A stretch of 64,000 bases of DNA from an uncultured Candidatus Saccharibacteria bacterium (GTDB lineage: Bacteria; Patescibacteriota; Minisyncoccia; Phycocordibacterales; CAYRGE01). The DNA lies in NCBI GenBank assembly GCA_964612415.1, contig CAZTCT010000003.1, positions 10,477 through 74,476 of the forward strand, written 5' to 3'. The translations under genes and the position numbers were made by a program. The stretch's first letter is position 1. The number at the start of each line of letters is the position of its first letter. Below the pieces are notes generated by a model. It made no database searches. It saw only the letters and a list, made by a program, of their open reading frames with translations, and was not told where the DNA came from. Shown here in pieces: positions 2,618-47,181 of this stretch.

Positions 2618-2653
2618 CTTGCTCTTAGTGCCTCTTTTGTCTACACTCAAAGC

Positions 2654-3763: not shown

Positions 3764-3766
3764 GAT

Positions 3767-5934: not shown

Positions 5935-6736
5935 AAAATTTTTTGCCCGTAAGGGCGACGAGTTTCCAGTTATACCAATGGTGCATCCACTCTACCCAAA
6001 AAGGCATACGTTCACCCTTGCAAAACAAAATGATACGTACATGACGCAGAAGGTAACTCAAAGAGGATCTCAATGAGCCCTTTACTGGCCCCTTGAGCCA
6101 CATGAGAAATGTATCGTTTTTGTGACGGGCCACTTCAATTCTAAGATAGTAAAGTTGTTTCAGTCGCATTTTTTCTTCCGTAGTATCTAGGGGGACATAT
6201 TCCGGGGATTTGAGCTTTCCCGTGCGCACACCCTCTCTAAGTGCTATGCGCTCATGTACTTGCTTTATAAAACCAGTGATCCCACTTTTATGAAAAAAGC
6301 GCATCTGGTAATTCGGGTAGGCCGTTGCGCATTCTATGATCTTTCCGTTTACAATAGTTTTTCTTGGGAGCCAGTATGCAAGTGCCGTCTGTGTACCTAA
6401 AGGGGAATATACTATCTCTCCAATCTCCGTTACTGCTTCGGGAGACAGATATTCATCCGAGTCAATATATAAAAACCATTCATGCTTTGCGGCCGCGAGC
6501 ATCTGGTTTCTTACGCCCGAGAAGTCAATAATTTGGCCACTCTCGTTAAGATATTTTTTATTCTGTTGGATTATGTCTGCACCAAATTCATGCGCAAGGG
6601 CCAATGTTGTATCAGTACTTCCTCCATCACATATAACAATGTGATTAAATTCACGAACAGACTCAAGCGCGCGGCGCAGGGTTTTCCCATTATTGAATGT
6701 GAGGATACCTACTGTACAAGGAATAGGCTTAGTCAT
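5900..6736 (-). CDS. glycosyltransferase family 2
   Basis: CTVGILTFNNGKTLRRALESVREF...ICDGGSTDTT...YIDSDEYLS (GT2 DxD-type signature). Confidence 0.85.
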   Translation of the reverse strand: MTKPIPCTVGILTFNNGKTLRRALESVREFNHIVICDGGSTDTTLALAHEFGADIIQQNKKYLNESGQIIDFSGVRNQMLAAAKHEWFLYIDSDEYLSPEAVTEIGEIVYSPLGTQTALAYWLPRKTIVNGKIIECATAYPNYQMRFFHKSGITGFIKQVHERIALREGVRTGKLKSPEYVPLDTTEEKMRLKQLYYLRIEVARHKNDTFLMWLKGPVKGSLRSSLSYLLRHVRIILFCKGERMPFWVEWMHHWYNWKLVALTGKKFFTPQAKQQVEE

Positions 6737-8264: not shown

Positions 8265-9371
8265 ATGAAACTCTTGTATTTGGCGAATATTCGACTTCCT
8301 ACGGAGAAGGCGCATGGGCTGCAGATAATGAAAATGTGCGAGGCTTTTATGCACGAGAACACTGAAGTGCAGCTGGTGGTACCAGCGCGCCGAAATCATA
8401 TAAGTGAGAACCCTTTTTCATATTATGGTATTAAACAGCAATTCCCGATAATCTATTTGCCTGTGTGGGATACAGTTGCTTGGGGTAGGATTGGTTTTTT
8501 ATTTGAATCCCTACAGTTTGCTCTCAAGGCTGCGATGTATACAAGAAAGTATCCTCCCGACGTATTGTATAGTCGTGACGAGTTGCCTCTTCTAGTTGCT
8601 TCATACGCAACAAAGCTTCCCGCAATATGGGAGGTACATACGGGGGCATGGAATTTCTTTGCAAAAAAGATGTCACAACTTGCGCGCGCAGTTATTGTGA
8701 TTTCTCATGGCCTGAAAGATTTTTATGTTGCGAAAGGGGTTTCTGCTGAGCGTATTGTTGTAGCACATGATGCGATAGACAGCGAGGATTTTTCTCGCAT
8801 TGAGCTCCCAGAAAATTCTCGTATGCGGTTGGGCATACCTATCGACAAGAAGATCGCACTTTATGTTGGACGCCTAGACGGCTGGAAGGGCGCGAATGTG
8901 TTTTGTGAAGCAGCCCAACTTCTTCCGAAAGATATTCTTGCGGTAGTAATTGGAGGCGAAGAACAGCAAGTGTCTCTATTCAAAAAAAAGTATCCAGAAG
9001 TTCTATTCCTCGGCTATATGCCGTATCGTGATTTGCCCTCAAATCAGGCTGCTGCTGATGTATTAGTCCTCCCGAATTCAAGCAAAGATCAAATCTCAGT
9101 TTTATTTGCGTCACCGCTCAAATTGTTTACTTACATGGCATCAGGCAAACCCATCGTTGCTTCTAACTTGCCATCTCTTAAAGAAGTGCTTCCTGACGCA
9201 GGCGCATTTTTTGTACCTCCAGATGATCCAAACGCGCTTGCTGGTGGTATAGTTCAGGCAGTTTCTAATCCTCAAGAGGGCAAGAAACGAGCCGAACAGG
9301 CGCGCGAGCTTGTCAAAGAGTACAGCTGGTATAATCGAGCGCACCACATTTTGCTATGTATCAAAAAATAA
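8265..9371 (+). CDS. glycosyltransferase family 4
   Basis: Likely start ATG 8265 (MKLLYLANIRLPTEKAHGLQIM); the longer ORF from 8043 overlaps the divergent AsnB-like gene; C-term ...LFTYMASGKPIVASNLPSLKEV. Confidence 0.75.
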   Translation: MKLLYLANIRLPTEKAHGLQIMKMCEAFMHENTEVQLVVPARRNHISENPFSYYGIKQQFPIIYLPVWDTVAWGRIGFLFESLQFALKAAMYTRKYPPDVLYSRDELPLLVASYATKLPAIWEVHTGAWNFFAKKMSQLARAVIVISHGLKDFYVAKGVSAERIVVAHDAIDSEDFSRIELPENSRMRLGIPIDKKIALYVGRLDGWKGANVFCEAAQLLPKDILAVVIGGEEQQVSLFKKKYPEVLFLGYMPYRDLPSNQAAADVLVLPNSSKDQISVLFASPLKLFTYMASGKPIVASNLPSLKEVLPDAGAFFVPPDDPNALAGGIVQAVSNPQEGKKRAEQARELVKEYSWYNRAHHILLCIKK

Positions 9372-9991
9372 CTCGCAGAGCCCTTGAGAGTTTTTTATCC
9401 CAAAACGCATCATCCGAGCGGGTTCTTGATATTGGAGCAGGAGGCTCTTCTTATTATAAGTTTTTCCCAAATCGTGTTTCTATTGATATAGACCCTGCTC
9501 GTAACCCTGATATCGTCGGTGACGCGCATAAACTTCCATTCAAAGATGGAGAGTTTAACACGATCTTATGCACAGAAGTTCTTGAACATTTAAAAGACCC
9601 GCGCGTCGCCATTTCAGAAATGAAACGAGTACTTGTAACTGGGGGTGTTTTAATTCTCACTACACGATTCGTTTATCCTATACACGATGCTCCAAATGAT
9701 TACTGGAGGTTTACAAAATACGGGCTCGCTGAACTATTTAAGGAATGGGAAATTATCAAATTGGTTCCAGAAACAGAAAATTTCTCAACAATAGCAGTTC
9801 TTCTACAAAGAATGACTTTTCAAACCTCACTTTACTTGAATAAACTTACTAAATTCTTCCTACTTTTAACGGCGCTCATTGTGCACAAGTTGAACTTTCT
9901 CATTAAAGGAGAATATGGAGATATACAAAAAAGGACGCGTGAAGACCATATCATGACAAGCGGATACTATCTTATATGCAAGAAGATTTGA
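9356..9991 (+). CDS. class I SAM-dependent methyltransferase
   Basis: Motif I VLDIGAGGSSYY; post-I FNTILCTEVLEHLKDP; LKTGGVLILTT. Confidence 0.75.
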   Translation: MYQKITRRALESFLSQNASSERVLDIGAGGSSYYKFFPNRVSIDIDPARNPDIVGDAHKLPFKDGEFNTILCTEVLEHLKDPRVAISEMKRVLVTGGVLILTTRFVYPIHDAPNDYWRFTKYGLAELFKEWEIIKLVPETENFSTIAVLLQRMTFQTSLYLNKLTKFFLLLTALIVHKLNFLIKGEYGDIQKRTREDHIMTSGYYLICKKI

Positions 9992-10422
9992 TAAAGGGGG
10001 ACCTTCTCTACTTCTTCCCCAGTAATTTATGGGGGGATATATTTGATACTACAAGCAAAGAGTTGCCTTTGCGGGCTGAAAGTCTGGAGGCAATCATAGC
10101 AAAGGAAGGAGATGATCTGGCTCATTTGTATACGCTTCTCAAAAAAGGAGGCATAATCTGCGTCAAAACATCCAGCGAGCGCAAAACGCTAAACTCCATA
10201 AAGCAGCAGGGATTCCTCCCTGAGAGCACTTATCTTCTATATCCGAGCGCTGACCTACCAAGATTTATTATTCCCAAAGGCGATGTCTGCGCACTTGGAT
10301 TTTCCATGGGAGCAATTAGCGTTGGTGCTCGGTTTGGAGGTATCTTTCGGTCTTTTGCCAAAAAGTCCTTTTTTGCACCTATGAAAGTTATGTGTGAGTA
10401 TGCGATTTTTGCAAAAAAATGA
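9976..10422 (+). CDS. hypothetical protein (148 aa), translationally coupled between methyltransferase and kinase-like genes
   Basis: Overlaps upstream gene by 16 nt and downstream gene by ATGA (10419-10422); LLKKGGIICVKT reminiscent of MTase fold but no clear motifs. Confidence 0.4.
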   Translation: MQEDLIKGDLLYFFPSNLWGDIFDTTSKELPLRAESLEAIIAKEGDDLAHLYTLLKKGGIICVKTSSERKTLNSIKQQGFLPESTYLLYPSADLPRFIIPKGDVCALGFSMGAISVGARFGGIFRSFAKKSFFAPMKVMCEYAIFAKK

Positions 10423-11237
10423 TTGAACAATTTAAAAAAGCCATACACGCACGCTCAGACCTTTTTCCTGGCATCGAGGAAGGAGAACTGGGCTTTACCA
10501 AATTTTGCCAGCGGATAGCAGGCCCAGATACCAAGGTCTTATTTTTTGTTACCCATAAAAAGAAGCCGCTATGCATCATAAAGATCATGAGAGAAAATTC
10601 TTTTAATTGGAGGCTAAAACAGGAAGCTGAAACTCAAAGAAGACTTTCAGAAAAAGAACTCAATTTTGTACCAGAGGTATATTTTGATGGAGAAATTGAT
10701 GGAAGGTATTTTTATGCAGAGCAGGTGATTATTGGAGATCCTTTAACCAAACATGATGCACAAAAAAGCGAAGACCTAATAATCAGGACAGTAGAATCTT
10801 TCCCAACCAGTGGAGCTATCCAGAGCTTGCATCTTTATAAAATTTTTAAGCAATGCAACATAGCCGACGAGAACTTCAAATTTTTGTTGGGCGTTTTTGG
10901 GGACAGAGAAATTACTTTTAAAAAGGGTATTACGCACGGTGATTTTGGTCTTCCAAATCTTATAAAAACAGAGCAAGGCGTATATGCTATTGATTGGGGT
11001 CGTGCAAACGAAAAGCCTCTTTGGCTCATTGACGCGGTCTATTTCTTGGTCCGAGTTAGGGGTATTAAAGACTTGAATGATTGGGAAAAGAGAGGTGTGC
11101 CAGCCCTTATTGAGCATTCGTCTATTGATAAAGTGACTGCAAAATCATTGTATTGTGCCTCAATTCTTTTTGAAATCCTTTATAAAAAATATCCCGCTGA
11201 ATACACTAACGTTGTAAAACAAATAAGTTTCTCATGA
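10419..11237 (+). CDS. phosphotransferase of the APH/choline-kinase (protein-kinase-like) fold
   Basis: Brenner-type motif GITHGDFGLPNLI followed by AIDWGRAN (HGDxxxxN...D); 272 aa. Confidence 0.6.
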   Translation: MIEQFKKAIHARSDLFPGIEEGELGFTKFCQRIAGPDTKVLFFVTHKKKPLCIIKIMRENSFNWRLKQEAETQRRLSEKELNFVPEVYFDGEIDGRYFYAEQVIIGDPLTKHDAQKSEDLIIRTVESFPTSGAIQSLHLYKIFKQCNIADENFKFLLGVFGDREITFKKGITHGDFGLPNLIKTEQGVYAIDWGRANEKPLWLIDAVYFLVRVRGIKDLNDWEKRGVPALIEHSSIDKVTAKSLYCASILFEILYKKYPAEYTNVVKQISFS

Positions 11238-12331
11238 AAATTCTCGTTCTGACAAGTGATCTCATAGATCGGCATGGGTGGGGGAGATATTCTCTTGATG
11301 TTATTGATGCGCTTGAGAAAGAAAATGTCGAGGTTGTCGTTGGGATGGGCAGGAAAGGTCTGAATGATACTGACAGAGAAGCTTTGCGTATCCTGCCAGC
11401 GTGGGGTAATAATTGGCGGAATTATTTTTGCGCATTTGTGTACGCACTGAGGTTGCGTCGGTATGCAAAGGACTGCGATTATATCCATGTCTTTGTTGAG
11501 CCGTATGCATATATAGCATATTGGCTGGCACTTCTTTCAAAGAAAAAATATATTATCACCACACACGGATCCTATGGACTCGTTCCTTTTCGTGGGGAAA
11601 TTATAAAATATTTTCATAAAACCGCTTTTTCTCGTGCGCACAAGATTGTTTGCGTGAGCAGTTATACAAAGGAACGCCTTACTGAATTTGGGTTTACTAA
11701 TTTGATAACGATTAACAACGGCATCAATGTGGGGGGAATGAACATTTCGAATAACCCAACATTTGATAAGAGGGAGAATTTGATACTGAGCGTTGGAGCC
11801 TTGAAATACAGAAAAGGACAGCATGTTTCAATCGAAGCGTTTTCTCGTATCGCAAAACTCGTTGCAGATGCCCGATATTATATTGTTGGTGACCAAGACG
11901 ATAAACCATATTACGCTAGATTAAAACAAATGGTGAAAGATTTGAACATTGAAGATAGGGTAGTCTTTCTCTCTGCAATTCCTAGCAGCGAACTTGCAGA
12001 TCTATATAAGAAAGCGAAAGTATTCGCCCTGCCTTCTATTAGCAGAGGCCCTTATTTTGAAGGATTTGGCCTTGTCTATTTAGAGGCAAATGCGTTCGGT
12101 CTTCCTGCTATAGGGAGTCGTGAGTCAGGAGCAAGAGATGCGATAAAAGATGGCGAGACCGGGTTTCTTGTCGCACAAAATGATGTTGATTCTCTTGCGC
12201 GGGCAATGAGTTCGCTGCTCCAAGATAATTTCCTTTGGAAAAAAATGAGTGAATGTGGTACCTTATGGGCCAAGGAACACGACTGGGAGCTTGTTATAAA
12301 AAAATATATCTCACTTTATCAAACACGATGA
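11234..12331 (+). CDS. glycosyltransferase family 4
   Basis: MKILVLTSDLIDRHGWGRYSLDV; FEGFGLVYLEANAFGLPAIGSRESGARDAIKDGETGFLV. Confidence 0.85.
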   Translation: MKILVLTSDLIDRHGWGRYSLDVIDALEKENVEVVVGMGRKGLNDTDREALRILPAWGNNWRNYFCAFVYALRLRRYAKDCDYIHVFVEPYAYIAYWLALLSKKKYIITTHGSYGLVPFRGEIIKYFHKTAFSRAHKIVCVSSYTKERLTEFGFTNLITINNGINVGGMNISNNPTFDKRENLILSVGALKYRKGQHVSIEAFSRIAKLVADARYYIVGDQDDKPYYARLKQMVKDLNIEDRVVFLSAIPSSELADLYKKAKVFALPSISRGPYFEGFGLVYLEANAFGLPAIGSRESGARDAIKDGETGFLVAQNDVDSLARAMSSLLQDNFLWKKMSECGTLWAKEHDWELVIKKYISLYQTR

Positions 12332-13662
12332 AAACTATTTTCATAAGCAGCTTTCATGCTTTAATCTCAAGAAACATTTTGCAAACCTCGATGCTTGCTG
12401 ATTTGGGGCAAAATGTGAAGGTTGTTATTTTGACCCACGAAAAGAAGACAGAATACTTTAAGCGTACTTTTGTTGGCAAGAATGTTTTCATTGAGGGGGT
12501 TGATATTCCCAAAAGGCCACTCGAAAATCTGATGCAGATGATATCATTTGGCCTTGTCGGCGTGGAGAATCACATTGTTCGAGGGTGGAAAACAGAAAGA
12601 AAATATTTTAAGTATTACTTCACCCATGCTCTTTATGCGCTGTGCTCCAGATTTTTTATATTTCATAAAGTGTTTCGTTCCCTGGCAAAGAGATATCTTC
12701 GAACCGACATCTTCGAGGGTCTTTTTCTGAAATATAATCCAGATTTAGTTTTTGCGACGGATAGTTTTGATAATGCAGATAGACTTCTTCTCCTTGAGGC
12801 GGAAAAGAAAGGGATTAAGACTTTAGGAATGATTCGCTCTTGGGACAACCCTACAACAAAAGGGGTATTCCTCCCAAACCCCAGTCATATTGTTGTGACT
12901 AACGATGTGGTCAAAGAGGAAATGATCGCAATCCATCATGTCCAAAAGGAAAAAGTGACCGTTGTGGGAGTCCCTCATTACGATAAGGTACTTCAGCCGA
13001 GGACTATTTCTAGGGGAGAACTTTTCAAAAAAGTGGGCCTTGATCCAAAAAAGAAAACAATATTTTTTTCTCCTGGAGGCAAGATGTTATACAAACATGA
13101 TGCAGAAGTAATGGCTCTTTTTAAAAAACAGCTTGATGAGAGAAGCTTTTCTGAGCCCATACAATTTTTAGTAAGCATACAACCTGGAGATACAATCAAC
13201 ACCGCAACCATTGAGGGTGATTCAAGATTTATATTGTATCAGTTTGGCACAGAAGTTACTGAACGAAGGAAAGAGAATGAAATGTCCCCAGATGAAAATA
13301 ATCGATTAAATGATCTCATTTTTTATTCTGATATTTTAGTGACACTGGTTTCAACAATGGCGATTGATGGTACTGTGTTTGGGAAGCCTGTTATCGTCCT
13401 GGGCTTTGACCCAAAGCCAGGTCTCCCTGACAAAATGTCTAAATTCGCAAAGTATAAACATTTCGAGAAATTCCTTGGAACTGGATTTGTGACTGTGGCA
13501 CATTCCAAGGAAGAGTTTGCGCAAGAGGTGAACGCATTTCTCAGTAACCCAGATCTTAGTAAAGAAAAACGCGAGGCGCTTATGAGTCGCTATATTTATA
13601 AGCTCGATGGGAATTCAACAAAAAGACTTACGGAATGTGTTTTGAGCGTGCTTGGTGATTAG
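12328..13662 (+). CDS. GT-B fold transferase, TagF/CDP-glycerol glycerophosphotransferase-like or capsule polymerase-like (family uncertain)
   Basis: ATGA overlap start at 12328 (MKTIFISSFHALISRNIL); no GT4 E-x7-E motif; C-terminal block LIFYSDILVTLVSTMAIDGTVFGKPVIVLGFDPK resembles TagF-family pattern. Confidence 0.4.
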   Translation: MKTIFISSFHALISRNILQTSMLADLGQNVKVVILTHEKKTEYFKRTFVGKNVFIEGVDIPKRPLENLMQMISFGLVGVENHIVRGWKTERKYFKYYFTHALYALCSRFFIFHKVFRSLAKRYLRTDIFEGLFLKYNPDLVFATDSFDNADRLLLLEAEKKGIKTLGMIRSWDNPTTKGVFLPNPSHIVVTNDVVKEEMIAIHHVQKEKVTVVGVPHYDKVLQPRTISRGELFKKVGLDPKKKTIFFSPGGKMLYKHDAEVMALFKKQLDERSFSEPIQFLVSIQPGDTINTATIEGDSRFILYQFGTEVTERRKENEMSPDENNRLNDLIFYSDILVTLVSTMAIDGTVFGKPVIVLGFDPKPGLPDKMSKFAKYKHFEKFLGTGFVTVAHSKEEFAQEVNAFLSNPDLSKEKREALMSRYIYKLDGNSTKRLTECVLSVLGD

Positions 13663-14441
13663 GGCAACTCAATGAGCTTAATATTCTTTGTGGGCTTTTT
13701 TAAGTGATTGGCAATAAGCCCTTCTTTGAGCTTTTGGTCGTAATCCGTGAGGGTTTGGCTGGTGATATCTTTTGTTCGGTAATACTTTGACCCTGGCTCA
13801 TCCCATTGCTTTGTGCGAGGAAGATGTTCATTTTGCTTTAGTTTTTCTAGGCAGTGAACAAGCGCAGTAGCTCCTTTCGCAATCGTCTTACAACCAATGG
13901 TATGAACGGTATCCTCGGCTTCTATTTCTGGGCGAACATGACAAATAATGTCTCCCGTGTCGACTCCAGCGTCAATGTGCAAAAGGGTCGCGCCAACATA
14001 CTCAAGCTCTTCATTTACGAACGGCCAAAAATTTGTTCCACTTCCTCGGTAGTACGGCGAAAGGCCTAAATGTAAATTTATGAATTTCCCACTAGGGATC
14101 AGAGAGAGCAGCGGATCTTTTATGATACTTGAGCCAAATACAAATCCTGCGTCAGGGTGGAAATCTTTCACGGCCGTATAGACCATAGGGAGATTTACTT
14201 CTGAGTAGAGTAAGGGAAGCGTCTTTGCCCAAAAGACGTCATTCCCAGGGAAGAACGATTGCTCTGTTTGAAAGCGCTCAACAAAAACCTCTTCTTGCTT
14301 AGTCAGGCTGCCCGGTGCCTCCGATGGGGCGTCACTTTTTTTGCCCTCAACAATTACCAGCGCCTCATCTGTATTTTTTGTGAGAGCGTTTGCGATAAAT
14401 TTGTGGCGGATCGCATTACTTGTGAAGATAACGATTTTCAT
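13659..14441 (-). CDS. sugar N-formyltransferase (formyl_trans_N family)
   Basis: FINLHLGLSPYYRGSGTNFWPF (HxSLLPxxRG-type) and LLHIDAGVDTGDII; 260 aa, size of WlaRD/VioF-type sugar formyltransferases. Confidence 0.7.
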   Translation of the reverse strand: MKIVIFTSNAIRHKFIANALTKNTDEALVIVEGKKSDAPSEAPGSLTKQEEVFVERFQTEQSFFPGNDVFWAKTLPLLYSEVNLPMVYTAVKDFHPDAGFVFGSSIIKDPLLSLIPSGKFINLHLGLSPYYRGSGTNFWPFVNEELEYVGATLLHIDAGVDTGDIICHVRPEIEAEDTVHTIGCKTIAKGATALVHCLEKLKQNEHLPRTKQWDEPGSKYYRTKDITSQTLTDYDQKLKEGLIANHLKKPTKNIKLIELP

Positions 14442-15418
14442 TGTGCCTCTAGTTTAGCAAGATTTTGTTTTAGTGTCGGCGCGTCATCCCAAGGCATTGG
14501 TTCATATCGTCCAATTTCAAATGGGCTGTTGTTAGGGGTATTCACAATCGGGTCTACTGTAAAGGCAAGACGATATTGGGTGCTCTCTTGTAAAAAGGTG
14601 GGAGTGAAACGATCCTGTGCTCCTCCGAAAGGGTAGCTGAATGCGTCAACTGTCGTGGCAAAAGTTTCTTCAAGGTATTTTTTAGGAGCGATGACCTCTT
14701 TCACAAAATCTTCCTCACTTAAATTGGCTGTTGCAACCGAGACATGGGTGTGGCTATGCGTGCCAATAGAGTGTCCCATTCCAACTATTTCAGACACCTG
14801 CTCTTTGGTCAGATGTATTTCATTGAGGATGTTCGGGAACTCGCTTAATAAAAGTTCTTCATAAATTCGAATGAGTACTTTTCGAGCTATTTTATGGGGG
14901 AGTTCATATTTGAATAACTTTTTGATCCGAGCAATAACTTCAGCTGGGTTGTCTCCACTTTGAAAAGTCATATCTTGGGGGGTCTCAAATCCCACTTCCT
15001 TTGAGATGAGGCGAAGCGTTTCAAGAAATTTTCCTATACCATGATGGGCAATACTATAATGAATGATCTGAGGGTTTGCTGGTAATTTGTCTTCAAAAAT
15101 ACAAGTAGGAATGAAAAATACTCCCTTAACCCCAGCTTCAGCAAGAATGCGTGCCGCATTATAGTGACCTGCTAAGCCATCATCGAATGTTAAGAGTACT
15201 CCTGTTTTTTTAGACTCAATTTTAGTATCTCCAGAATAAATTTCACGGATTTCATCAAGAGAGAGGGGATGGTATGTGTTCTTGAACAAAAAAGTATGTG
15301 CCCGGAGTTGGTCTTCGGTGTTCCCGTAGATTCTCGGGAAGCGCCCGATTGAAGAGGTGTTTTTAATGTAGTGGTAGCACAAGGCCAAAAAGCTCATGGA
15401 GAAGATGATAACACGCAA
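14438..15418 (-). CDS. polysaccharide deacetylase (CE4/NodB family), N-terminal membrane anchor
   Basis: NodB motif LLTFDDGLAGHY; hydrophobic N-term MRVIIFSMSFLALCY; 4-nt overlap with the formyltransferase gene. Confidence 0.8.
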   Translation of the reverse strand: MRVIIFSMSFLALCYHYIKNTSSIGRFPRIYGNTEDQLRAHTFLFKNTYHPLSLDEIREIYSGDTKIESKKTGVLLTFDDGLAGHYNAARILAEAGVKGVFFIPTCIFEDKLPANPQIIHYSIAHHGIGKFLETLRLISKEVGFETPQDMTFQSGDNPAEVIARIKKLFKYELPHKIARKVLIRIYEELLLSEFPNILNEIHLTKEQVSEIVGMGHSIGTHSHTHVSVATANLSEEDFVKEVIAPKKYLEETFATTVDAFSYPFGGAQDRFTPTFLQESTQYRLAFTVDPIVNTPNNSPFEIGRYEPMPWDDAPTLKQNLAKLEAQ

Positions 15419-15466
15419 AAAGACCTTTACTAAATTGGGATTTCCTGCATAATTACGATACTTTTT

Positions 15467-16195
15467 ATGCCTGTTTTATATGAGAATACCCTAGCCATTA
15501 TCCCTGCGAGGGGTGGAAGCAAAGGCATACCCCGAAAGAATATCAAGGAGCTTTCAGGGAAGCCCCTCATCGCGTGGTCTATTGAGGCGGCGCTTGAGGC
15601 AGATGCAACCAAGCGGGTTGTTGTTGCCACAGACGATTCTGAGATTGCCCAAATCGCAAAAAAATACGGAGCTGAGGTGCCATTCTTACTCCCAAGTGAG
15701 CTAACACAAGATGACTCTTCTATTCTTGATGTAATAAAGTATGTCCTAGAATGGTTTAAAAAAGAGATGGGAGAAGACTATAGCCAGGTCTTGTTTCTTG
15801 AGCCAACAAGCCCACTTCGCACACCACAACATATCAAGGAGTCGATTGATTTGTTTAATAACAAAGATGCAGATTCTGTGGTAAGTGTTATGCGCGTGCC
15901 AGGACATTTTAGCCCACACTGGCAGTTTGTGCTTGATAACGACAGCGCTTTGAGTATTTTCACAAATGAGAATATTAGAAACATCATTCCTAGACGGCAG
16001 CAATTACCAGCTACTTATACCCGAGATGGAGCAATTTATCTTTTCAAATCCAATTTACTTTTTAACGAAACGCCAGGTATTTATGGGGAGCGGGTGTTTG
16101 CGTATGTGATTGACCCCAAATATACGGTCGATATAGACGAACCTAGCGATTGGGATATTGCCGAAAAAAAGATGGAGAAACGAAACAAAGGATAA
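15467..16195 (+). CDS. neuA: CMP-nonulosonic acid synthetase (acylneuraminate cytidylyltransferase family, NeuA/LegF/PseF-like)
   Basis: LAIIPARGGSKGIPRKNIKELSGKPLIAWSIEAAL...VVVATDDSEIAQIAKKYGAEV (CTP_transf_3 signature). Confidence 0.8.
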   Translation: MPVLYENTLAIIPARGGSKGIPRKNIKELSGKPLIAWSIEAALEADATKRVVVATDDSEIAQIAKKYGAEVPFLLPSELTQDDSSILDVIKYVLEWFKKEMGEDYSQVLFLEPTSPLRTPQHIKESIDLFNNKDADSVVSVMRVPGHFSPHWQFVLDNDSALSIFTNENIRNIIPRRQQLPATYTRDGAIYLFKSNLLFNETPGIYGERVFAYVIDPKYTVDIDEPSDWDIAEKKMEKRNKG

Positions 16196-16200
16196 GCTAT

Positions 16201-17250
16201 ATGAATCCAAGTATACAAATTGGAAAAAGGAAGATAGGTGCTGATCACAAGCCTTTTGTGATTGCTGAAATTGGGATTAATCACGAAGGGAGTATTGAAA
16301 AAGCAAAAAGGATGATCAGGGATGCGGCGAAAAATGGTGCTGAGTGCGTAAAGTTTCAATCGCACGTCATTGAGGATGAAATGAGCAATGCTGCAAAAAG
16401 AGTTGTGCCTGGCAATGCGAAAGAGTCGATATGGGACATTATGGAGCGATGTGCTTTTTCTGAGAAACAAGAGCGTGAGCTCAAGACCTATGCCGAGAAA
16501 CTAGGATTGATGTATCTTTCCACTCCATTTTCTCGTGCGGCGGCTGATCGGCTACATAGAATGAACGTGAGTGCTTTCAAAATAGGATCAGGTGAATGTA
16601 ACAACTATCCTCTCATTGAGCATATTGCAAAATGGAAGAAGCCAATGATTGTCAGTACCGGAATGAATGATATTGCTTCAATCAAAAAAACAGTTGCGAT
16701 ACTCGAAAAATACAAAGTTCCATACGCACTTCTGCATGTGACTTCAATGTACCCAACTCCTTACGATAAGGTACGCCTCGGCGCGCTTGAGGAATTGCGC
16801 AGGGAGTTTCCACGCGCTGTTCTTGGTCTTAGCGATCATTCAATCGGGAATTATACGTGCTATGGAGCTGTTGCTCTAGGGGCTTCTATACTGGAAAAAC
16901 ATTTTGTGTCCAATCGACGCTGGAAAGGGCCAGATGTACCGATATCAATTCTCCCCGAAGAATTGTCTGAGTTGATTAAAGGAGTCAATGCAATTTACGC
17001 AGCAAGAGGAGGGCAGAAGGAGATTCTAAAAGAAGAAGCGCCAACAATTGCTTTTGCATATGCGACGGTGGTAACAATAAGGGAAATTCCCGCTGGGGCT
17101 ATTATTACAAAAGAAGACGTTTGGGTTAAAAGACCAGGGACTGGAGAAATCCCAGCAGAACATCTGCCTCAAATTATCGGGAAAAGAGCAAAACGTCCAT
17201 TGGCCCAAGATGAGCAGTTATCCTGGAAAGACATAGAGGAAAATAAATAA
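16201..17250 (+). CDS. neuB: N-acetylneuraminate (nonulosonate) synthase with C-terminal SAF domain (NeuB/LegI/PseI family)
   Basis: Start ATG 16201 preceded by AAGGA; IGADHKPFVIAEIGINHEGSIEKAKRMIRDAAKNGAECVKFQSH; C-term SAF domain. Confidence 0.85.
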   Translation: MNPSIQIGKRKIGADHKPFVIAEIGINHEGSIEKAKRMIRDAAKNGAECVKFQSHVIEDEMSNAAKRVVPGNAKESIWDIMERCAFSEKQERELKTYAEKLGLMYLSTPFSRAAADRLHRMNVSAFKIGSGECNNYPLIEHIAKWKKPMIVSTGMNDIASIKKTVAILEKYKVPYALLHVTSMYPTPYDKVRLGALEELRREFPRAVLGLSDHSIGNYTCYGAVALGASILEKHFVSNRRWKGPDVPISILPEELSELIKGVNAIYAARGGQKEILKEEAPTIAFAYATVVTIREIPAGAIITKEDVWVKRPGTGEIPAEHLPQIIGKRAKRPLAQDEQLSWKDIEENK

Positions 17251-17252
17251 AT

Positions 17253-18428
17253 ATGAAGAAGAGAAAAATTTGTGTCATTACGAATACTCGCGCGGATTAC
17301 TCTCGTTTAAGAACGCTTCTTTTCGCGCTGCGGGACCGGAAGGATGTTGATCTTTTTTTGTGCGTGGCAGGGGCGCATCTCCTTTCTGTTGGCGGGTATA
17401 CCATTGAGGAAATTAAGCGGGATGGTTTCAATATAGACTATCGTATTTACACGGAAGTAGATGGGCATGTACTTTCAACAATGACCAAATCAACAGGACT
17501 TGCGATCATTGAGTTCTCCAGTTTTTTTGAAAATCATCGTCCTGACATTGTTGTTGTGCATGGGGATCGCTTTGAAGCGTTTGCTGCTGCTACCGCCGCC
17601 TCAATGATGAATATTTATGTTGCGCATCTACAAGGAGGCGAGATAACGGGGACGATAGATGAACATTTGCGACATGCCATAACAAAGCTTGCACATTTTC
17701 ATTTTGCATCAAACGAACAAGCCAAAGAGCGTATCATTGAATTGGGCGAAAACCCAGAGTATGTTTTCAATGTAGGATGTCCATCTGTTGATGTTCTCCT
17801 TTCTGCGCCCAAATATCCTTTTAGTAAGTTAAAGAAAGGGCTTGCTGACAAGATCAAAAAAGAGGGATGGCTTGATGGTTTTGATGGAGAATTTTTACTC
17901 TTGGTTCAGCACCCTGTCACGACAGAATTCAGCAAAGCTGCTGAGGAAATGGTAGAGACGCTACATGCACTTAGGAAATATCCTCGACATATTCTAGCTC
18001 TCTGGCCTAACATAGATGCTGGGGCTGAGCTTATGGTGCAAGAGATTAAAAAATTTGAGCGAGAAGTTGATGGGAAATTTGCAGTAGTAAACAGCATGCC
18101 CATGGAAGTTTTTGTGAATGTCATGCGGCACACAACTGTCATGGTAGGGAATTCTTCTGCAGGGGTTCGAGAAGCTTGCTATTTCGGGACTCCTGTAGTT
18201 AACGTGGGCACACGACAAGAGGGACGCGTAAAAACACCCAATGTTATAAATGTTCCCGATGAGCGCAAGGCAATTGAGAAAGCTATTAAAATGCAGCTAA
18301 AGAGTGGACGGTTTAAGCCCGTGTACCCCTATGGAGAGGGTGGTGCAGGAGAGAAGATCGCTGACATCCTTGCTACAATCCCACTGGGTAACTCTCAGAA
18401 AAGACTTATTTCTAAAGTCCAAAATTAA
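17253..18428 (+). CDS. neuC: UDP-N-acetylglucosamine 2-epimerase (hydrolysing), NeuC/LegG family
   Basis: KICVITNTRADYSRLRTLLFAL...DIVVVHGDRFEAFAAATAASMMNIYVAHLQGGEITGTIDEHLRHAITKLAHFHF. Confidence 0.85.
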   Translation: MKKRKICVITNTRADYSRLRTLLFALRDRKDVDLFLCVAGAHLLSVGGYTIEEIKRDGFNIDYRIYTEVDGHVLSTMTKSTGLAIIEFSSFFENHRPDIVVVHGDRFEAFAAATAASMMNIYVAHLQGGEITGTIDEHLRHAITKLAHFHFASNEQAKERIIELGENPEYVFNVGCPSVDVLLSAPKYPFSKLKKGLADKIKKEGWLDGFDGEFLLLVQHPVTTEFSKAAEEMVETLHALRKYPRHILALWPNIDAGAELMVQEIKKFEREVDGKFAVVNSMPMEVFVNVMRHTTVMVGNSSAGVREACYFGTPVVNVGTRQEGRVKTPNVINVPDERKAIEKAIKMQLKSGRFKPVYPYGEGGAGEKIADILATIPLGNSQKRLISKVQN

Positions 18429-19681
18429 TATTTTGCGCGAACAAAGAGTGTGGCAAGCAGTATCAGGCTAAACAGTTGTGTGGTAAGTTCAGAAAAGATT
18501 GCCCCTAAAATCCCAAAAGTAGGCACAAGAATTACCAAAAGGATTAATTTTATGATCGGAATCGCAATTGAGTTTATATAAAGTGCTTTAATATAGCCGT
18601 GTGCGTTGAGGATGGTTCCAAGTATTTTCTTTGGGAATAGAAGCAATGTGAGTACATATAATTGAGAATAGAATATTGCTTCAATATATTGCGGGAAAAA
18701 TATTTTATAGATATAAGGTGCAGCGACAATATACACTAGGACAATTACAGCAAGACCAGCAAACATTACGAGCATTCTATGAAGAAGCGTTTTTTTGATA
18801 CTCGCTATGTCCCTTTGGGCGAACTTTGGTAAAGATAATGGGACTATACGTTTGAGCGCGGTGCTCATGTTAAGGGGGATTGCCTTTGCGAATGAATAAA
18901 CCGCCAAAGCTGCTGGACCCAAGAATTGCCAAAGCAACATACTCTCTGCTGTTTCTGCAATCGTGCCTAAAACCTCCATGGCGCTTAGATGTTTCCCATA
19001 TCCAATTGCCGATCCATCAACCTTTTTATTTGTTGTGTGTCGGTGTATCGCTAAACGCAAAGCAATAAATCTTGTGATTGTATATGCAAGGAAGTAAGAA
19101 AGCAGTATCAGCAAGAGATTTTTTGTATAAAAAAGTGTTGCGATAATTACGGCAATGGAAATGGCTTGTACTGTTATCTCGTAAGCAGCAGAGAGCCTAA
19201 AGAATTTTTTCCCATTCAAAATCGTTGTAAAGATTCCAAGAGTATCAACAAAAGGAAGGAAAATTGCTGAGATAAGAAATGCTTCTGCGAGCCTTTCGTT
19301 GCCCTGTATAAAGTAGTACAACGCAACTGCAAGTGCCCCCAAGCTCCCAAGCATACCCCAACGTATTTTTGTTTTGAAGGCAGCTGACGCTGTTCCATCG
19401 AACCCTTGAGCGATTGCTTTAACAACAGATGTCCCCATACCAGGAAGGGTTGCCAGCGCCAATAGTCCAAATATTGAGAATATATATTTATATTCACCAA
19501 AGGTTGCTTGTGGGAGGAGGTTTGCGAATGCAAGAGAAAGACCAAAGGCCAAAATCGCCCCAGCAAAGACCTTTACAGAAAGCCAGAAACCCCCAGAAGC
19601 AAGGTACACCATATCTGTTTTGGTGTATTTCTCGGTCTTCCTTAAAAAGTGGTACCCTGTGTTTTTTAGACGCTCGATCAT
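18425..19681 (-). CDS. polysaccharide flippase (Wzx/oligosaccharide flippase family, multi-TM)
   Basis: 418 aa, ~12 predicted TM segments, N-term ...LASGGFWLSVKVFAGAIL typical of the Polysacc_synt family; convergent with neuC (4-nt overlap). Confidence 0.7.
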   Translation of the reverse strand: MIERLKNTGYHFLRKTEKYTKTDMVYLASGGFWLSVKVFAGAILAFGLSLAFANLLPQATFGEYKYIFSIFGLLALATLPGMGTSVVKAIAQGFDGTASAAFKTKIRWGMLGSLGALAVALYYFIQGNERLAEAFLISAIFLPFVDTLGIFTTILNGKKFFRLSAAYEITVQAISIAVIIATLFYTKNLLLILLSYFLAYTITRFIALRLAIHRHTTNKKVDGSAIGYGKHLSAMEVLGTIAETAESMLLWQFLGPAALAVYSFAKAIPLNMSTALKRIVPLSLPKFAQRDIASIKKTLLHRMLVMFAGLAVIVLVYIVAAPYIYKIFFPQYIEAIFYSQLYVLTLLLFPKKILGTILNAHGYIKALYINSIAIPIIKLILLVILVPTFGILGAIFSELTTQLFSLILLATLFVRAKY

Positions 19682-19765
19682 TGTTTTATTCTACTCTGGG
19701 AGGGGGCTATCTGACCAATGGGGCTTGTCTCGTATTAAGGAGAAGTATAGTATACATCTCATACG

Positions 19766-20470
19766 ATGAGACTTTCCCACGCCTCTATTTTCCAAAAATA
19801 TTTGTATTTTCTCGTCCACTTTAAAGGGTTATTAACGAATAGCTTTGCTAAAAAGTACTATGGGCAATGGGGAGAAGATGTAATTCTAATTGGGATGTTT
19901 CCAGACAAGAAAGATGGTTTCTATGTTGACGTTGGCGCATTCCATCCAATGCACTATTCAAATACATATCTACTCTACAAAAAAGGATGGCATGGTATTA
20001 ATATCGACCCAAATCCTTGGAGCATCCGCTTATTTAACCTACACAGAAGAAGAGACGTCAATCTAAATTATGGAGTCAATAAGGAGGCGTCCATACAGCC
20101 TTATTTTATTTTTAATCATCAAAGTTGCAATACATTTTCCGAGAAGCAAAAAGAAGAAATGCTCAAAAGACCATTTATGCGGTTAATAAAAGAGACAGAG
20201 GTTTCATGTCTGCCCCTTAGAACCATTCTCTCGGAACATGCGCAAGGGCGAGAGATTGACCTTCTTAATATTGACGTAGAGGGAATGAGCATGGAAGTGC
20301 TTCAATCATTCGACTGGGGAGGGAATAAACCAAAAGTGATTGCCATTGAAGATGACGATTTTGATCTTAAAAATAAAGAAGAAAGCCATGTCTTTGCATT
20401 CTTATCGGAACAAGGCTATGTATTCCATGTGCGTGTCGGAGTAACGTGCATATATAAGCGTAACTTCTGA
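19766..20470 (+). CDS. FkbM-family methyltransferase
   Basis: YYGQWGEDVILIGMFPDKKDGFYVDVGAFHP matches the FkbM domain core (GxxxEDxxL...FVDVGA). Confidence 0.6.
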   Translation: MRLSHASIFQKYLYFLVHFKGLLTNSFAKKYYGQWGEDVILIGMFPDKKDGFYVDVGAFHPMHYSNTYLLYKKGWHGINIDPNPWSIRLFNLHRRRDVNLNYGVNKEASIQPYFIFNHQSCNTFSEKQKEEMLKRPFMRLIKETEVSCLPLRTILSEHAQGREIDLLNIDVEGMSMEVLQSFDWGGNKPKVIAIEDDDFDLKNKEESHVFAFLSEQGYVFHVRVGVTCIYKRNF

Positions 20471-22125
20471 TGATTAAAGAAGCATCAAAAACTGTCGGTG
20501 TACTCAGTGAATATCTGGAAGAGGGGGATGTCGTCTTTTTTGGGTACAAAGGAGCTCCCCCAGATTTTTTGATAGAGAAAAAGATAGGAAGAGTCCGATT
20601 TTTTGTCAAAGAAAAGAAAATTTTTACAGATGACCCTAAAGATTTTTACATAGCTTCATATGTGGATATTTCTGAAATCCGAGATCAATATGCTGATGTT
20701 TATTTTTTGGACAAAGAGGCGACAAGAGTTCTTTTGACAGGTTTCCCAATTTCAGCACAGTATCTTTTGGTCCGGCTTACTCCACATTTTAGTTGGGGCA
20801 TAGCTTTTTTGGGGCTAGTGCGGCGCGTCTGGTTAAACCACGTCTCTTTTGAGGGGATTAGAAAGATTAAATCTGACGGGAAGAATCAATCATGGCTGGT
20901 ATTAAAACATAATCTAAAAGAGAATCTTTCACATTGTCTTTCGCTTGATGAGAGTATAGGGGTGCCGAATTTTTTTCGGTACTTAAGAGATAAAAAAGTC
21001 AACTATGTTGTTTTACGCTTTTTTGAGAGGTTGCCAGAATTATATCGGAAAGGGGGCGACTTGGATTTATTAGTCAAAGATGAAGATGAACCTATTGTGC
21101 GTGGCTTTCTTTTACAACATCGAGGTTCTACCCCTATTCATGTTTTTACACCCAATAAGACTGTTTCTAATGATATAACATATTACCCGCCGCCTATCGC
21201 ACAGCGCATAATTAAGAGCGGTGTTGCAGGGCCTGCGAATTCCAGAATCCCTTCTCCAAAAGAAGCTTTTTTGTCATTTGCATATCACGTGCTGTATCAC
21301 AAGGGTCTTTTGGCTGGAGTTCCAACAAAGACTTTGTTAAAGGTTAATGCTAGTCCTGACAATGATTACACGAAGGAGTTAAAAAGACTTGCAGATTTAT
21401 GCGGAGTGACAATTGAACCAATGACCATGGAGAACATCAGTAATATTTTAGAAAAGGAGGGATGGCAGCCAAAGCTAGATACACTTGCAAAAATATCAGA
21501 ACGAAACACATGGGTGCGCAAGTATTTTTTCAGTAATCAAAGTAAGAAGAAAAATGAGATGGGGTTAGGTGTATTTATTTTGAAAAAGCGAGCATTTATT
21601 CATGGGGTGTCAGAGGCTATATTAAAAGACATCGAATCGAATGGGAGATTTAGTGTTCTGTTTATAAAAAAATTTTCTCAGCAAGATATTCAGCGTGTCA
21701 CTGAACACTTGAGAGGAGGCGTATGGAGTAATGAGGTCGAGATGGGCGATGGACTTTCTCCAGCAATGGTAATTGTTGTGTTAGACACACATGTGGCACG
21801 CCTATCAAAATTCATAAAAAGCAGGGGAGTTCATCCTGGGGGGATTAAAGATCTCAAAAAAGTTCTAAGGGCCAAATTTGACACAACGAAAGAAAGTAGC
21901 ATGATTCATTCTACAGACAACACAAATGAGGCAAATGAGTATCTGCGGTGGTGTTTTTCTCCTGATGAGGTAGCGTGGATACAAGATAAACTAAACCATG
22001 AATATGGACGCCTCCAAGTTTCTGTGGTGGAAAAGTTTCAATATCTTGTGAAAAGTTCCATACTATTTTTCCCTGATCAAGTTAGGCATCTTAAAGAAAG
22101 GATAGTAAAATACCTTATCCAATGA
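20470..22125 (+). CDS. hypothetical protein (551 aa) in polysaccharide locus
   Basis: No confident family; central block NYVVLRFFERLPELYRKGGDLDLLVKDED...PIHVF could be a nucleotidyltransferase-like or phosphotransferase core (weak). Confidence 0.45.
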   Translation: MIKEASKTVGVLSEYLEEGDVVFFGYKGAPPDFLIEKKIGRVRFFVKEKKIFTDDPKDFYIASYVDISEIRDQYADVYFLDKEATRVLLTGFPISAQYLLVRLTPHFSWGIAFLGLVRRVWLNHVSFEGIRKIKSDGKNQSWLVLKHNLKENLSHCLSLDESIGVPNFFRYLRDKKVNYVVLRFFERLPELYRKGGDLDLLVKDEDEPIVRGFLLQHRGSTPIHVFTPNKTVSNDITYYPPPIAQRIIKSGVAGPANSRIPSPKEAFLSFAYHVLYHKGLLAGVPTKTLLKVNASPDNDYTKELKRLADLCGVTIEPMTMENISNILEKEGWQPKLDTLAKISERNTWVRKYFFSNQSKKKNEMGLGVFILKKRAFIHGVSEAILKDIESNGRFSVLFIKKFSQQDIQRVTEHLRGGVWSNEVEMGDGLSPAMVIVVLDTHVARLSKFIKSRGVHPGGIKDLKKVLRAKFDTTKESSMIHSTDNTNEANEYLRWCFSPDEVAWIQDKLNHEYGRLQVSVVEKFQYLVKSSILFFPDQVRHLKERIVKYLIQ

Positions 22126-22132
22126 GTTAATT

Positions 22133-22915
22133 TTGTGGAGATTTATGTTATTTACACGGAAAGACCCAGAACCAAAATTTGTGCAAAGTTCATACAACAC
22201 GTTTCTTAAAAAACTTCCCGGTAGCTATAGTGATTATCGATGGAGAAGGGATGCTGCTATGAGGTCCCATTTTCAACAAACCTTACGTAGCCTTGACTTT
22301 GTGGTGGCACGGTTAAATCTGAGCAAAGTCAATTCCCATATTCTTGAGGTTGGTGGAGGAGATGGCATGTGGGTGGAGCAAATTTGGGGTCCTCGCGTTG
22401 GTGCAATTGACTTTCTTGATATTTCAGAAGAAATGCTCGAGCAAGCAAAAGCTCGGCTTGCATCTTGTGGGCATATTTCTTATATTCATTCAGATTTTCT
22501 GGCATGGACAGCTCCAGTAGATAAGTATGATGTCGTGAGTATTATCCGGAACCTGGAATATATGGAGGATAAACATGCGGCCCTTATAAAAACTAAGCAA
22601 GTGCTCAAGCCGGGCGGAACATTAGTGCTCATTACAAAAAATCCTGAAAGCGATTTTTTGGGTTATTACAAAAAGCACAAATTGCATGCAGGCAGAATTT
22701 CAATAAAAGAGCTTCGGGCACTTCTTATCAGTGCAGGGTTTTCTGATGTTTATATTTACCCTGCTATCATTGGGAAGAAATTGCAGTACTCATTTTCCCG
22801 GTTTATCTGGCAGGGCATTCAATGGGTGTTACTTCGTGCGCCAAAATTAGTTTCGTTGCCATGGTTCTCCCGTATTTTTGCTGAAAGTTTTTTGATTACA
22901 GCCCGAAAGCCCTAA
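22133..22915 (+). CDS. class I SAM-dependent methyltransferase
   Basis: Motif I ILEVGGGDGMWVEQIW; LKPGGTLVLITKNPES. Confidence 0.7.
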   Translation: MWRFMLFTRKDPEPKFVQSSYNTFLKKLPGSYSDYRWRRDAAMRSHFQQTLRSLDFVVARLNLSKVNSHILEVGGGDGMWVEQIWGPRVGAIDFLDISEEMLEQAKARLASCGHISYIHSDFLAWTAPVDKYDVVSIIRNLEYMEDKHAALIKTKQVLKPGGTLVLITKNPESDFLGYYKKHKLHAGRISIKELRALLISAGFSDVYIYPAIIGKKLQYSFSRFIWQGIQWVLLRAPKLVSLPWFSRIFAESFLITARKP

Positions 22916-23031
22916 ACCCTCTAGTGTTTTCTTGGTATAGCGAATTGCTCTGGGAACGGTGGTTTATCTTCCATCAAAGAAAAAACCAGGATTTCCTAGG
23001 CATGCAATTTTGCCTGTGTTATAGTGGGCCC

Positions 23032-46415: not shown

Positions 46416-46445
46416 CAACCACCTTCACTTTTTTATGCCTTTGTG

Positions 46446-46451
46446 TATAAT
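46446..46451 (+). promoter_or_regulatory. -10 box TATAAT 8 nt upstream of L25 ATG (leaderless-type)
   Basis: TATAAT 46446-46451; ATG 46460. Confidence 0.4.
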
Positions 46452-46459
46452 GGGGCTTC

Positions 46460-47107: not shown

Positions 47108-47129
47108 TACATCTCCATTTAATACAAAA

Positions 47130-47158: not shown

Positions 47159-47181
47159 ATCCAAGGACTCCTCTTTATGCA

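Follow-up and report, generated by a model that had tools for sequence, protein, structure and literature searches.

In a 64,000-nt stretch of contig CAZTCT010000003.1 (the whole stretch is called the window below), from a candidate phyla radiation (CPR) bacterium, we analysed a contiguous NeuA, NeuB and NeuC nonulosonic acid module and a divergent pair of genes, referred to here as the cassette, that encode a CE4-family deacetylase and an N-formyltransferase. The core enzymes probably constitute a Neu-type pathway, in which UDP-N-acetylglucosamine (UDP-GlcNAc) would be converted through N-acetylmannosamine (ManNAc) and N-acetylneuraminic acid (Neu5Ac) to CMP-Neu5Ac. Conserved gene neighbourhoods support a functional tie between the CE4 and formyltransferase genes and the nonulosonate module. 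For the complete proposal, in which a Neu5Ac pathway is followed by CE4- and formyltransferase-mediated editing of N5 to give CMP-N-formylneuraminic acid (CMP-Neu5Fo), we regard the chances as evenly balanced. The genes concerned are as follows.

15467–16195, plus strand: NeuA, CMP-nonulosonate synthetase (Pfam CTP_transf_3, 99.3 bits)
16201–17250, plus strand: NeuB, nonulosonate synthase with a C-terminal SAF domain (Pfam NeuB, PF03102, 242.1 bits; SAF, PF08666, 51.4 bits)
17253–18428, plus strand: NeuC, hydrolysing UDP-GlcNAc 2-epimerase, predicted to convert UDP-GlcNAc to ManNAc and UDP (Pfam Epimerase_2, 254.3 bits)
15419–15466: divergent intergenic spacer of 48 nt, from the CE4 start codon to the NeuA start codon (sequence reading)
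14438–15418, minus strand: CE4 metal-dependent de-N-acetylase, PgaB/PplD-like and probably cytoplasmic, first cassette gene (Polysacc_deac_1, 54.2 bits, E 1.8e-14)
13659–14441, minus strand: N-formyltransferase of 260 aa, second cassette gene (Formyl_trans_N, 41.6 bits, E 1.4e-10)
12328–13662, plus strand: TagB/TagF-like GT-B glycosyltransferase, convergent with the formyltransferase gene (Pfam Glyphos_transf, 50 bits)

These genes are tightly packed, with a 4-nt overlap between the CE4 and formyltransferase genes and a 2-nt gap between NeuB and NeuC. The NeuB open reading frame (ORF) extends from 16150 or 16201 to 17250, and the start at 16201 (349 aa) is that of independent gene calls on the metagenomic Logan contig SRR15237813_145154, which carries identical genes and whose calls match the window ORFs. 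The original prediction had described contiguous NeuA, NeuB-SAF and NeuC genes at 15467–18428 and, upstream on the opposite strand, a formyl_trans_N sugar formyltransferase with a NodB-type deacetylase. Both descriptions were borne out, with ORFs at these coordinates and domain matches far above chance.

We examined the identity of the three core enzymes by profile and structure-database comparisons. NeuC scored 400.6 bits on the NCBIfam model for hydrolysing NeuC/NnaA enzymes (TIGR03568; cutoff 235.9) and 92.4 on the WecB model. Its matches in the Protein Data Bank (PDB) were the human GNE epimerase domain (259–275 bits) and A. baumannii LegG (196–201 bits), with WecB-type entries below 60, and alignment showed that the GNE motifs HGDRF, GGExxGxxD and QHPVTT are kept. 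NeuB scored 360.6 bits on the NeuB_NnaB model (NCBIfam TIGR03569) against 223.4 on the PseI model, and its domains are those of a TIM barrel with an SAF/antifreeze-like domain. By scores and identity, NeuB was placed on the Neu5Ac-synthase side: it aligned end to end with N. meningitidis NeuB (NmNeuB; PDB 1xuu) at 51% identity and 387 bits, compared with 139 bits for PseI (8h2c). Neither membership of a 3-deoxy-D-manno-octulosonate 8-phosphate (KDO-8-P) synthase clade nor of a WecB clade, both named beforehand as outcomes that would contradict a nonulosonate module, applies to NeuB or NeuC. NeuA is a cytidylyltransferase only, with no esterase domain, and its best PDB matches were CMP-Neu5Ac synthetases (6ifd, 138 bits; 9ftb, 130; 1eyr, 102), with KdsB entries at no more than 45 bits and KdsB models at no more than 65. 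At the DNA level, a comparison with the E. coli reference neuB and neuC genes gave no match.

The closest named relatives of NeuB were obtained by tblastn against annotated plasmids. BpsE of B. cereus G9241 pBC210 is 60.6% identical and is encoded in a bpsE-bpsF-bpsG set that corresponds to NeuB-NeuC-NeuA, with a GT52-family gene nearby. An Alistipes plasmid NeuB (53.5%) is encoded in a neuA-neuB-neuC set followed by a true N-acetyl sugar amidotransferase gene, and the S. meliloti pSymB NeuB (∼49%) in a neuA-neuB-neuC set followed by polysialyltransferase-family genes and capsule export. Since NmNeuB is itself 52–62% identical to these three proteins, we treat NmNeuB, BpsE, the Alistipes and S. 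meliloti enzymes and the window NeuB as one clade on sequence grounds, tied to aminotransferase-free three-gene modules. The N. meningitidis SiaA/SiaC/SiaB, B. cereus G9241 bpsF/bpsE/bpsG and S. meliloti pSymB systems comprise the same three contiguous families as the window, likewise with no aminotransferase or dehydratase, and their NeuBs are ∼49–61% identical to ours. In contrast to these systems, the window module is accompanied by the CE4–formyltransferase cassette and a TagB-like GT-B, and resides in a CPR host.

The evidence that ties the cassette to nonulosonate synthesis comes from its conservation. In a scan of one genome per species, relatives of the formyltransferase were present in 284 species genomes of bacteria and archaea from many phyla, with carriers including Saccharibacteria, Paceibacterota, Yanofskybacteria, Omnitrophota, Thaumarchaeota/Nitrosopumilus, SAR324, Gemmatimonadota, Planctomycetota, Verrucomicrobiota and Bacteroidota. 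Two of the carriers are cultured organisms, Gillisia mitskevichiae DSM 19839 and Zunongwangia atlantica 22II14-10F7 (loci L059 and L072). Within the close class, defined by at least 48% identity, a CE4 gene lay no more than 300 nt from the formyltransferase gene in 17 of 19 loci, and NeuA, NeuB and NeuC were all present in 9 of the 11 loci that have at least 5 kb on both sides. Among distant formyltransferase relatives, NeuABC accompanied 14/16 loci with CE4 versus 5/44 loci lacking it (Fisher p = 6.5e-8). The top companions after ORF clustering were CE4 (33 loci), NeuA (26), NeuB (25), NeuC (23) and Glyphos_transf (19), and a Glyphos_transf gene stood beside the cassette in 19 of 35 loci. The cassette is often placed between the neu genes themselves (L010, L015, L059, L061 and L072), and one Paceibacterota metagenome-assembled genome (MAG; L016) has an architecture identical to that of the window, with NeuC-NeuB-NeuA, a divergent CE4–formyltransferase pair and a convergent Glyphos_transf gene. 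The cassette was found with at least three NeuB clades, which fits a target common to all nonulosonates, namely the GlcNAc-derived N5 acetamido group. The locus had been thought unusual for such a reduced genome, a view that did not hold: the cassette, often together with NeuABC, occurs in MAGs of Saccharibacteria, Paceibacterota, Yanofskybacteria and Parcubacteria.

A Phycisphaerae-dominated formyltransferase subfamily (L030–L087, 34–39% identity) has no CE4 and no neu genes; it served as an internal negative control for linkage and probably acts on another substrate. Two further observations concern gene content at cassette loci. At L026 (Ca. Yanofskybacteria, PCXQ01000004.1), a single cassette is flanked by two complete NeuA/B/C sets, one of which is accompanied by two DegT genes and a short-chain dehydrogenase/reductase (SDR) gene and is legionaminic acid (Leg)- or pseudaminic acid (Pse)-like, the other by neither; an additional 170-aa ORF lies between its CE4 and formyltransferase genes. 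An ORF of ∼545 aa (cluster 10, e.g. L014:334–1971) adjoins the cassette or NeuA in L013, L014, L020, L025 and L075 and is absent from the window. It contains a CxxxCxxC-like motif, read by eye as B12-binding radical-SAM, and may encode a further nonulosonate-tailoring enzyme.

The choice between a Neu-type and a Leg- or Pse-type pathway depends on both the synthase and the upstream genes. A tblastn search with queries from related loci found no DegT aminotransferase and no PseB/LegB-type dehydratase in the window, and the locus has no hexapeptide acyltransferase. The combination expected for Leg synthesis (4,6-dehydratase, DegT aminotransferase and N-acetyltransferase clustered with the synthase) was not found within the 64 kb, nor was that for Pse synthesis (PseI-type synthase, PseG, PseB/PseC): NeuB fell below the PseI cutoff of 340 bits and the epimerase is NeuC-type rather than PseG. 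The SDR encoded by the first gene of the window was considered as LegB and rejected as unassignable (70 bits on the LegB model; cutoff 475). At L026, the window NeuB groups with the copy from the DegT-free set (57% identical to NmNeuB) and not with the DegT-linked copy (38%). Because of this NeuB clade and because no Leg or Pse upstream genes are present in the 64 kb, we read the pathway as Neu-type. The original prediction had included a legionaminic- or Pse-type sugar and an analogy with Pse5Ac7Fo, neither of which we retain. The former does not agree with a NeuB from the clade of N. meningitidis NeuB, B. cereus BpsE and S. meliloti NeuB; the latter needs a 4-amino group made by PseB/PseC, and the formyltransferase matched PseJ only locally (31 bits, residues 118–181).

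A comparable gene pair has been described in a different chemical setting. CMP-nonulosonates that lack acetyl and bear one free amine and one N-formyl group were detected in Ca. Kuenenia stuttgartiensis, and the same preprint describes a Leg-type Kuenenia cluster in which deacetylase and formyltransferase genes are present and concludes that editing takes place at the nucleotide-sugar level (SugarBase preprint, April 2026; bioRxiv 10.64898/2026.04.20.719630). As in the window, the pair is embedded among nonulosonate genes, a likeness drawn from the description only: the preprint names neither the protein families nor the locus tags of the Kuenenia genes. By analogy, the window organism could make a legionaminic-type 5,7-diamino nonulosonate with LegB and LegC encoded outside the window; the formyltransferase, taking the role of an acetyltransferase, would then modify N7, the amine made by LegC, and CE4 would remove the N5 acetyl to leave a free-amine, N-formyl sugar. 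We consider this rather unlikely. The L026 cassette is indeed flanked by a DegT- and SDR-containing nonulosonate set, Polysacc_synt_2-type SDR genes lie beside the cassette in 12 of 40 loci, and our analysis covers 64 kb of an 80.8-kb contig. However, Leg genes normally cluster with legG/I/F and neither a DegT gene nor a PseB/LegB-type dehydratase gene is present in these 64 kb, only a few loci have DegT within 10 kb of their cassette, and the window NeuB belongs to the DegT-free side of L026 and to a clade linked to three-gene Neu modules with sialyltransferase-family genes.

Several observations weigh against the Neu-type assignment, and against extending it to the cassette product. The NeuB score of 360.6 bits is under the TIGR03569 equivalog cutoff of 399.65, and NeuA scored 177 bits on the PseF model, itself below a cutoff of 205.7. 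The ratio of GNE to LegG scores is non-diagnostic, and we dropped it as a discriminator between NeuC, with UDP-GlcNAc as substrate, and LegG, with UDP/GDP-diNAcBac, since the bona fide NeuCs of three reference three-gene Neu modules score LegG at least as highly as GNE. Leg synthases are sometimes near Neu5Ac synthases and partly able to replace them. The LegB, LegC and acyltransferase genes could lie elsewhere in the genome, of which 64 kb was covered. In addition, the Kuenenia cluster contains legB and legC and makes a diamino sugar, whereas the window has neither gene in 64 kb, and this diamino Leg/Pse type is the only one for which chemical data on such a gene pair exist. For the cassette, substrate and product are read from synteny alone, with no characterised enzyme in either family. 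PgaB- and PplD-type CE4 enzymes normally target polymer- or lipid-bound GlcNAc outside the cytoplasm. Finally, in five loci (L005, L009, L011, L012 and L022) the neighbours of the cassette are AsnB, Glyphos_transf and ABC genes, and neither NeuB nor NeuC occurs within 10 kb; the cassette might thus sometimes act on something other than a nonulosonate.

This last group of loci also bears on a second alternative, in which the cassette edits another amino sugar, such as a UDP-N-acetylhexosamine or lipid-linked GlcNAc or ManNAc, while NeuC, NeuB and NeuA supply ordinary CMP-Neu5Ac. Such a role would be in keeping with the nearest CE4 folds (PplD, PgaB and IcaB), which deacetylate GlcNAc residues, and with known sugar N-formyltransferases, which act on nucleoside diphosphate-linked hexosamines. 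We nevertheless think it unlikely: the linkage to NeuABC is strong and specific, both in the close class and among the distant relatives, the cassette is frequently found amid the neu genes, and the Kuenenia modifications are already present on CMP-activated nonulosonates.

Both cassette enzymes look catalytically active from their sequences and models. The catalytic elements of CE4 follow the PgaB-type order, with H16 (in YHY, aligned to the PgaB WHN motif), T77-F-D79-D80 and H221-x3-H225. Residues H16, D79, D80, H221 and H225 are kept in at least 32 of 33 cassette homologues and are invariant in a set of 21, such that the Asp base, the Asp-His-His metal triad and the His acid are all conserved. 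The AlphaFold model (predicted local distance difference test, pLDDT, 90.1) includes a helical insertion of ∼90 aa, and its top Foldseek matches were all de-N-acetylases: PplD (E 4e-15, template modelling (TM) score 0.83), PgaB, IcaB and BpsB. The window CE4 resembles the PgaB/IcaB/PplD subgroup in fold and motif order (N-terminal His acid, TFDD, HxxxH). Unlike these enzymes, it has the helical insertion, has no evident signal peptide (strand 1 begins at residue 10) and is partnered by a folate-dependent formyltransferase, which implies a cytoplasmic role on a soluble substrate.

The formyltransferase exceeded the PF00551 cutoff (41.6 versus 26.1 bits), and its best PDB sequence matches were the sugar N-formyltransferases QdtF-type 4xcz, ArnA, WlaRD and WbkC. 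N122, H124, D161 and the SPYYRGSGTNFWP motif are invariant in 18 homologues, and the model (pLDDT 91.8) has the formyltransferase fold, with TM ∼0.6 to Fmt, ArnA and WbkC. A sequence search returned 1957 matches, the best 120 of which were all 52–97% identical; by these comparisons the enzyme belongs to a distinct, highly conserved family of ∼260 aa. No match was found on plasmids of cultured organisms. PseJ (Anoxybacillus, PDB 6ci2), WlaRD, QdtF, WbkC and ArnA share its fold and Asn-His-Asp triad and formylate an amine made by an aminotransferase, whereas the amine for the window enzyme would have to come from de-N-acetylation. The family also differs from these enzymes in its own invariant SPYYRGSGTNFWP motif and C-terminal helices.

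As ArnA is one of the nearest matches to the formyltransferase in both sequence and fold, the pair could instead carry out a transient, ArnA/ArnD-like formylation, with CE4 as the deformylase and a free amine, without formyl, on the final sugar. ArnD is indeed a CE4-family deformylase, and free-amine nonulosonates exist. However, a Neu-type route offers no amine until the acetyl is removed, so that a deacetylase would be needed anyway; no ArnD-type structure was among the significant Foldseek matches, which were topped by de-N-acetylases; and the formyl group is kept on the Kuenenia CMP-sugars. We consider transient formylation highly improbable.

We propose the following route for N5 editing. 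NeuC would hydrolyse and epimerise UDP-GlcNAc to ManNAc, NeuB would condense ManNAc with phosphoenolpyruvate to form Neu5Ac, and NeuA would convert Neu5Ac to the CMP-sugar. The CE4–formyltransferase pair, divergent from the neu genes and predicted to be translationally coupled, would act as an N-acyl editing cassette: the cytoplasmic CE4 metallo-amidase would strip the N5 acetyl that all nonulosonates inherit from GlcNAc, and the 260-aa N10-formyl-tetrahydrofolate-dependent transferase would formylate the exposed amine. Deacetylation followed by formylation is the simplest coupled chemistry, because the two genes are almost inseparable. As the transferase would use N10-formyl-tetrahydrofolate and CE4 has no signal peptide, both steps would be cytoplasmic and precede sugar transfer. 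The predicted donor to the glycan machinery is CMP-Neu5Fo, because N5 is the sole nitrogen in a Neu-type pathway, possibly with some free-amine CMP-Neu. We infer the substrate position (N5), the editing stage (UDP-sugar, free sugar or CMP-sugar), the order of steps, the final product and the transferase that follows. More tentatively, the pair may be a portable N5-acyl editing cassette for any nonulosonate class, which in this organism would act at the nucleotide-sugar stage to turn a sialic acid into Neu5Fo and/or free-amine neuraminic acid; we hold this possible but short of probable. To our knowledge, neither Neu5Fo nor free-amine neuraminic acid has been described as the product of a prokaryotic biosynthetic pathway.

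The transferase may be the TagB-like GT-B, which we name as a candidate CMP-nonulosonate transferase from its position only. No GT52, GT38 or other recognised sialyltransferase is encoded at the locus, where the TagB-like GT-B is found instead. The genetically proven Pse/Leg transferases of Tannerella forsythia (Tanf_01245, TFUB4_00887 and BFO_1060; PMC5420450) are likewise TagB/TagF-like GT-B proteins encoded beside nonulosonate genes. The window protein was rejected as a member of that family: it scored 43.8 bits on the BFO_1060 family (cutoff 200) and lacks the HP and D/E-D/E-G motifs of sialyltransferases.

Formylated nonulosonates have been reported in other settings. 5-N-formyl-legionaminic acid is known in Halorubrum (PMC6137143), and the Halorubrum cluster was considered as the same system and set aside: its predicted formyltransferase is encoded by a longer gene (PCR product 953 bp), and a deacetylase was not reported. 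In the searchable literature we found nothing on nonulosonates or sialic acid in Patescibacteria/CPR, and no definition of the two-gene cassette, its breadth of distribution, the linkage statistics or its attachment to a Neu-type three-gene pathway in CPR. The concept of editing is thus not new; the specific cassette, its breadth, the NeuABC linkage and the Neu-type CPR setting appear from these comparisons to be the new elements.

Microbial surfaces are capped by nonulosonic acids, which determine charge, phage and host recognition, and cell–cell contact. Replacing the N-acetyl group with a free amine would make the sugar zwitterionic, and replacing it with formyl would change its size and recognition. 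The cassette offers a concrete genetic marker for N5-edited nonulosonates, where until now one organism (Kuenenia, in a preprint) had linked such a pair to them. If the proposal is true, the cassette would explain N5-formyl and zwitterionic nonulosonates across hundreds of uncultured lineages, Thaumarchaeota, Saccharibacteria and Planctomycetota among them, and the locus would add a defined, probably charge-modified surface glycan to CPR organisms with a contact-dependent episymbiotic lifestyle. Gillisia mitskevichiae DSM 19839 and Zunongwangia atlantica 22II14-10F7, as cultured carriers, make the prediction testable.

A modified nonulosonic acid, N-formylated and/or acetamidino, had been predicted for this locus. 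The N-formyl/de-N-acetyl part of that prediction is supported by the conserved, NeuABC-linked gene pair and the Kuenenia precedent, and the acetamidino part is not, as no PseA/WbuX match was found. The AsnB-like gene on which the latter drew is present (6729–8228, minus strand), but its product is degenerate, and we do not uphold its identity as a PseA-type amidotransferase. Asn_synthase matched residues 159–269 only (50 bits), the asparagine synthase profile matched from position 121 onward (64 bits; cutoff 267), and a GATase_7 remnant was detected at E 0.012. The protein lacks the N-terminal glutaminase nucleophile region, and its PDB E-values were 0.004 or worse. As a PseA/WbuX/LfnA N-acetyl-sugar amidotransferase, the 6729–8228 gene had no NCBIfam match and was rejected.

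Full-length AsnB-type amidotransferases (GATase plus Asn_synthase, ∼590–640 aa) adjoin the cassette in L005, L009, L012, L015, L029, L059, L068 and L072, often directly upstream of CE4 or downstream of NeuA, unlike the degenerate copy in the window. Separately, the annotation of the Alistipes indistinctus plasmid p2BBH45 (L091, 7331–11337) places an N-acetyl sugar amidotransferase gene immediately after neuA-neuB-neuC. This order suggests that a plasmid of human-gut Bacteroidota encodes an N5-acetimidoyl derivative of a Neu-type sugar.

The neu genes and cassette probably form the sugar-precursor core of a Wzx/Wzy-type surface-glycan locus. Positions 1–25200 of the window comprise a single glycan-assembly locus, with a generic SDR, GT4 genes, one GT2, three methyltransferases, the TagB/TagF-like GT-B, a Wzx-type flippase, a Wzy_C/TPR protein and a few unassigned ORFs. 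Its other features are listed below.

1–1401 (L003:83–1528): generic extended-SDR epimerase/dehydratase of 481 aa, first gene
1403–5934, 8265–9371 and 11234–12331: ranges holding five GT4 genes (Pfam and Logan gene calls)
5900–6736: GT2 (Pfam and Logan gene calls)
6729–8228, minus strand: AsnB-like PP-loop protein, degenerate, 499 aa (Asn_synthase, 50 bits)
9356–9991: methyltransferase (Pfam and Logan gene calls)
9976–11237: two ORFs with no assigned family (9976–10422, plus strand; 10419–11237, plus strand; Logan gene calls)
18425–19681, minus strand: Wzx-type oligosaccharide flippase (Polysacc_synt, PF01943, 50 bits), convergent with NeuC with a 4-nt overlap
19766–20470, plus strand: FkbM methyltransferase (Pfam)
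20470–22125, plus strand: ORF of 551 aa between two methyltransferase genes (no family match in Pfam or NCBIfam)
22145–22915, plus strand: S-adenosylmethionine methyltransferase (Pfam)
22924–25200, plus strand: Wzy_C/O-antigen-ligase-like protein with TPR repeats (Pfam)

The length of the first gene is based on Logan contig L003, which reaches 126 nt upstream of the window start. Its product has a C-terminal extension of ∼180 aa with only a faint GT4-like match (E 0.049), which may be a fused or novel domain. A promoter-like site (TTTACT-16-CATAAT) lies at 15426–15453 on the plus strand, 5′ of NeuA; in a promoter and terminator scan of 13400–19900, site counts were not above those of shuffled sequence. 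No significant Pfam or NCBIfam match was obtained for the ORFs at 20470–22125 (plus strand), 9976–10422 (plus), 10419–11237 (plus), 46433–47590 (minus) and 49854–51650 (plus), and a permissive Pfam scan of the unannotated locus ORFs gave nothing usable. Among these ORFs, the one of 272 aa shows no more than a weak APH/kinase-like motif (18.5 bits).

The glycan locus is followed by housekeeping genes, including MurB, SecA, PPDK, enolase, GatB, GAPDH, transketolase, PheT, GyrB and DnaE. The named best matches of the enolase were only Yonathbacteria, Azambacteria, Lloydbacteria, Paceibacterota and Parcubacteria, at ∼54–55% identity. Because these named relatives are found only in Patescibacteria, the earlier assignment to a probable CPR-type genome holds, and we describe the source as a Paceibacterota-like CPR bacterium. 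Among the housekeeping genes, the phenylalanyl-tRNA synthetase beta-chain ORF (54729–57089, plus strand) encodes B3_4, B5, tRNA_synthFbeta and FDX-ACB domains together with an unusual NlpC/P60-like insertion (PF00877, 62 bits, residues 355–414) between the B5 and catalytic-like domains.

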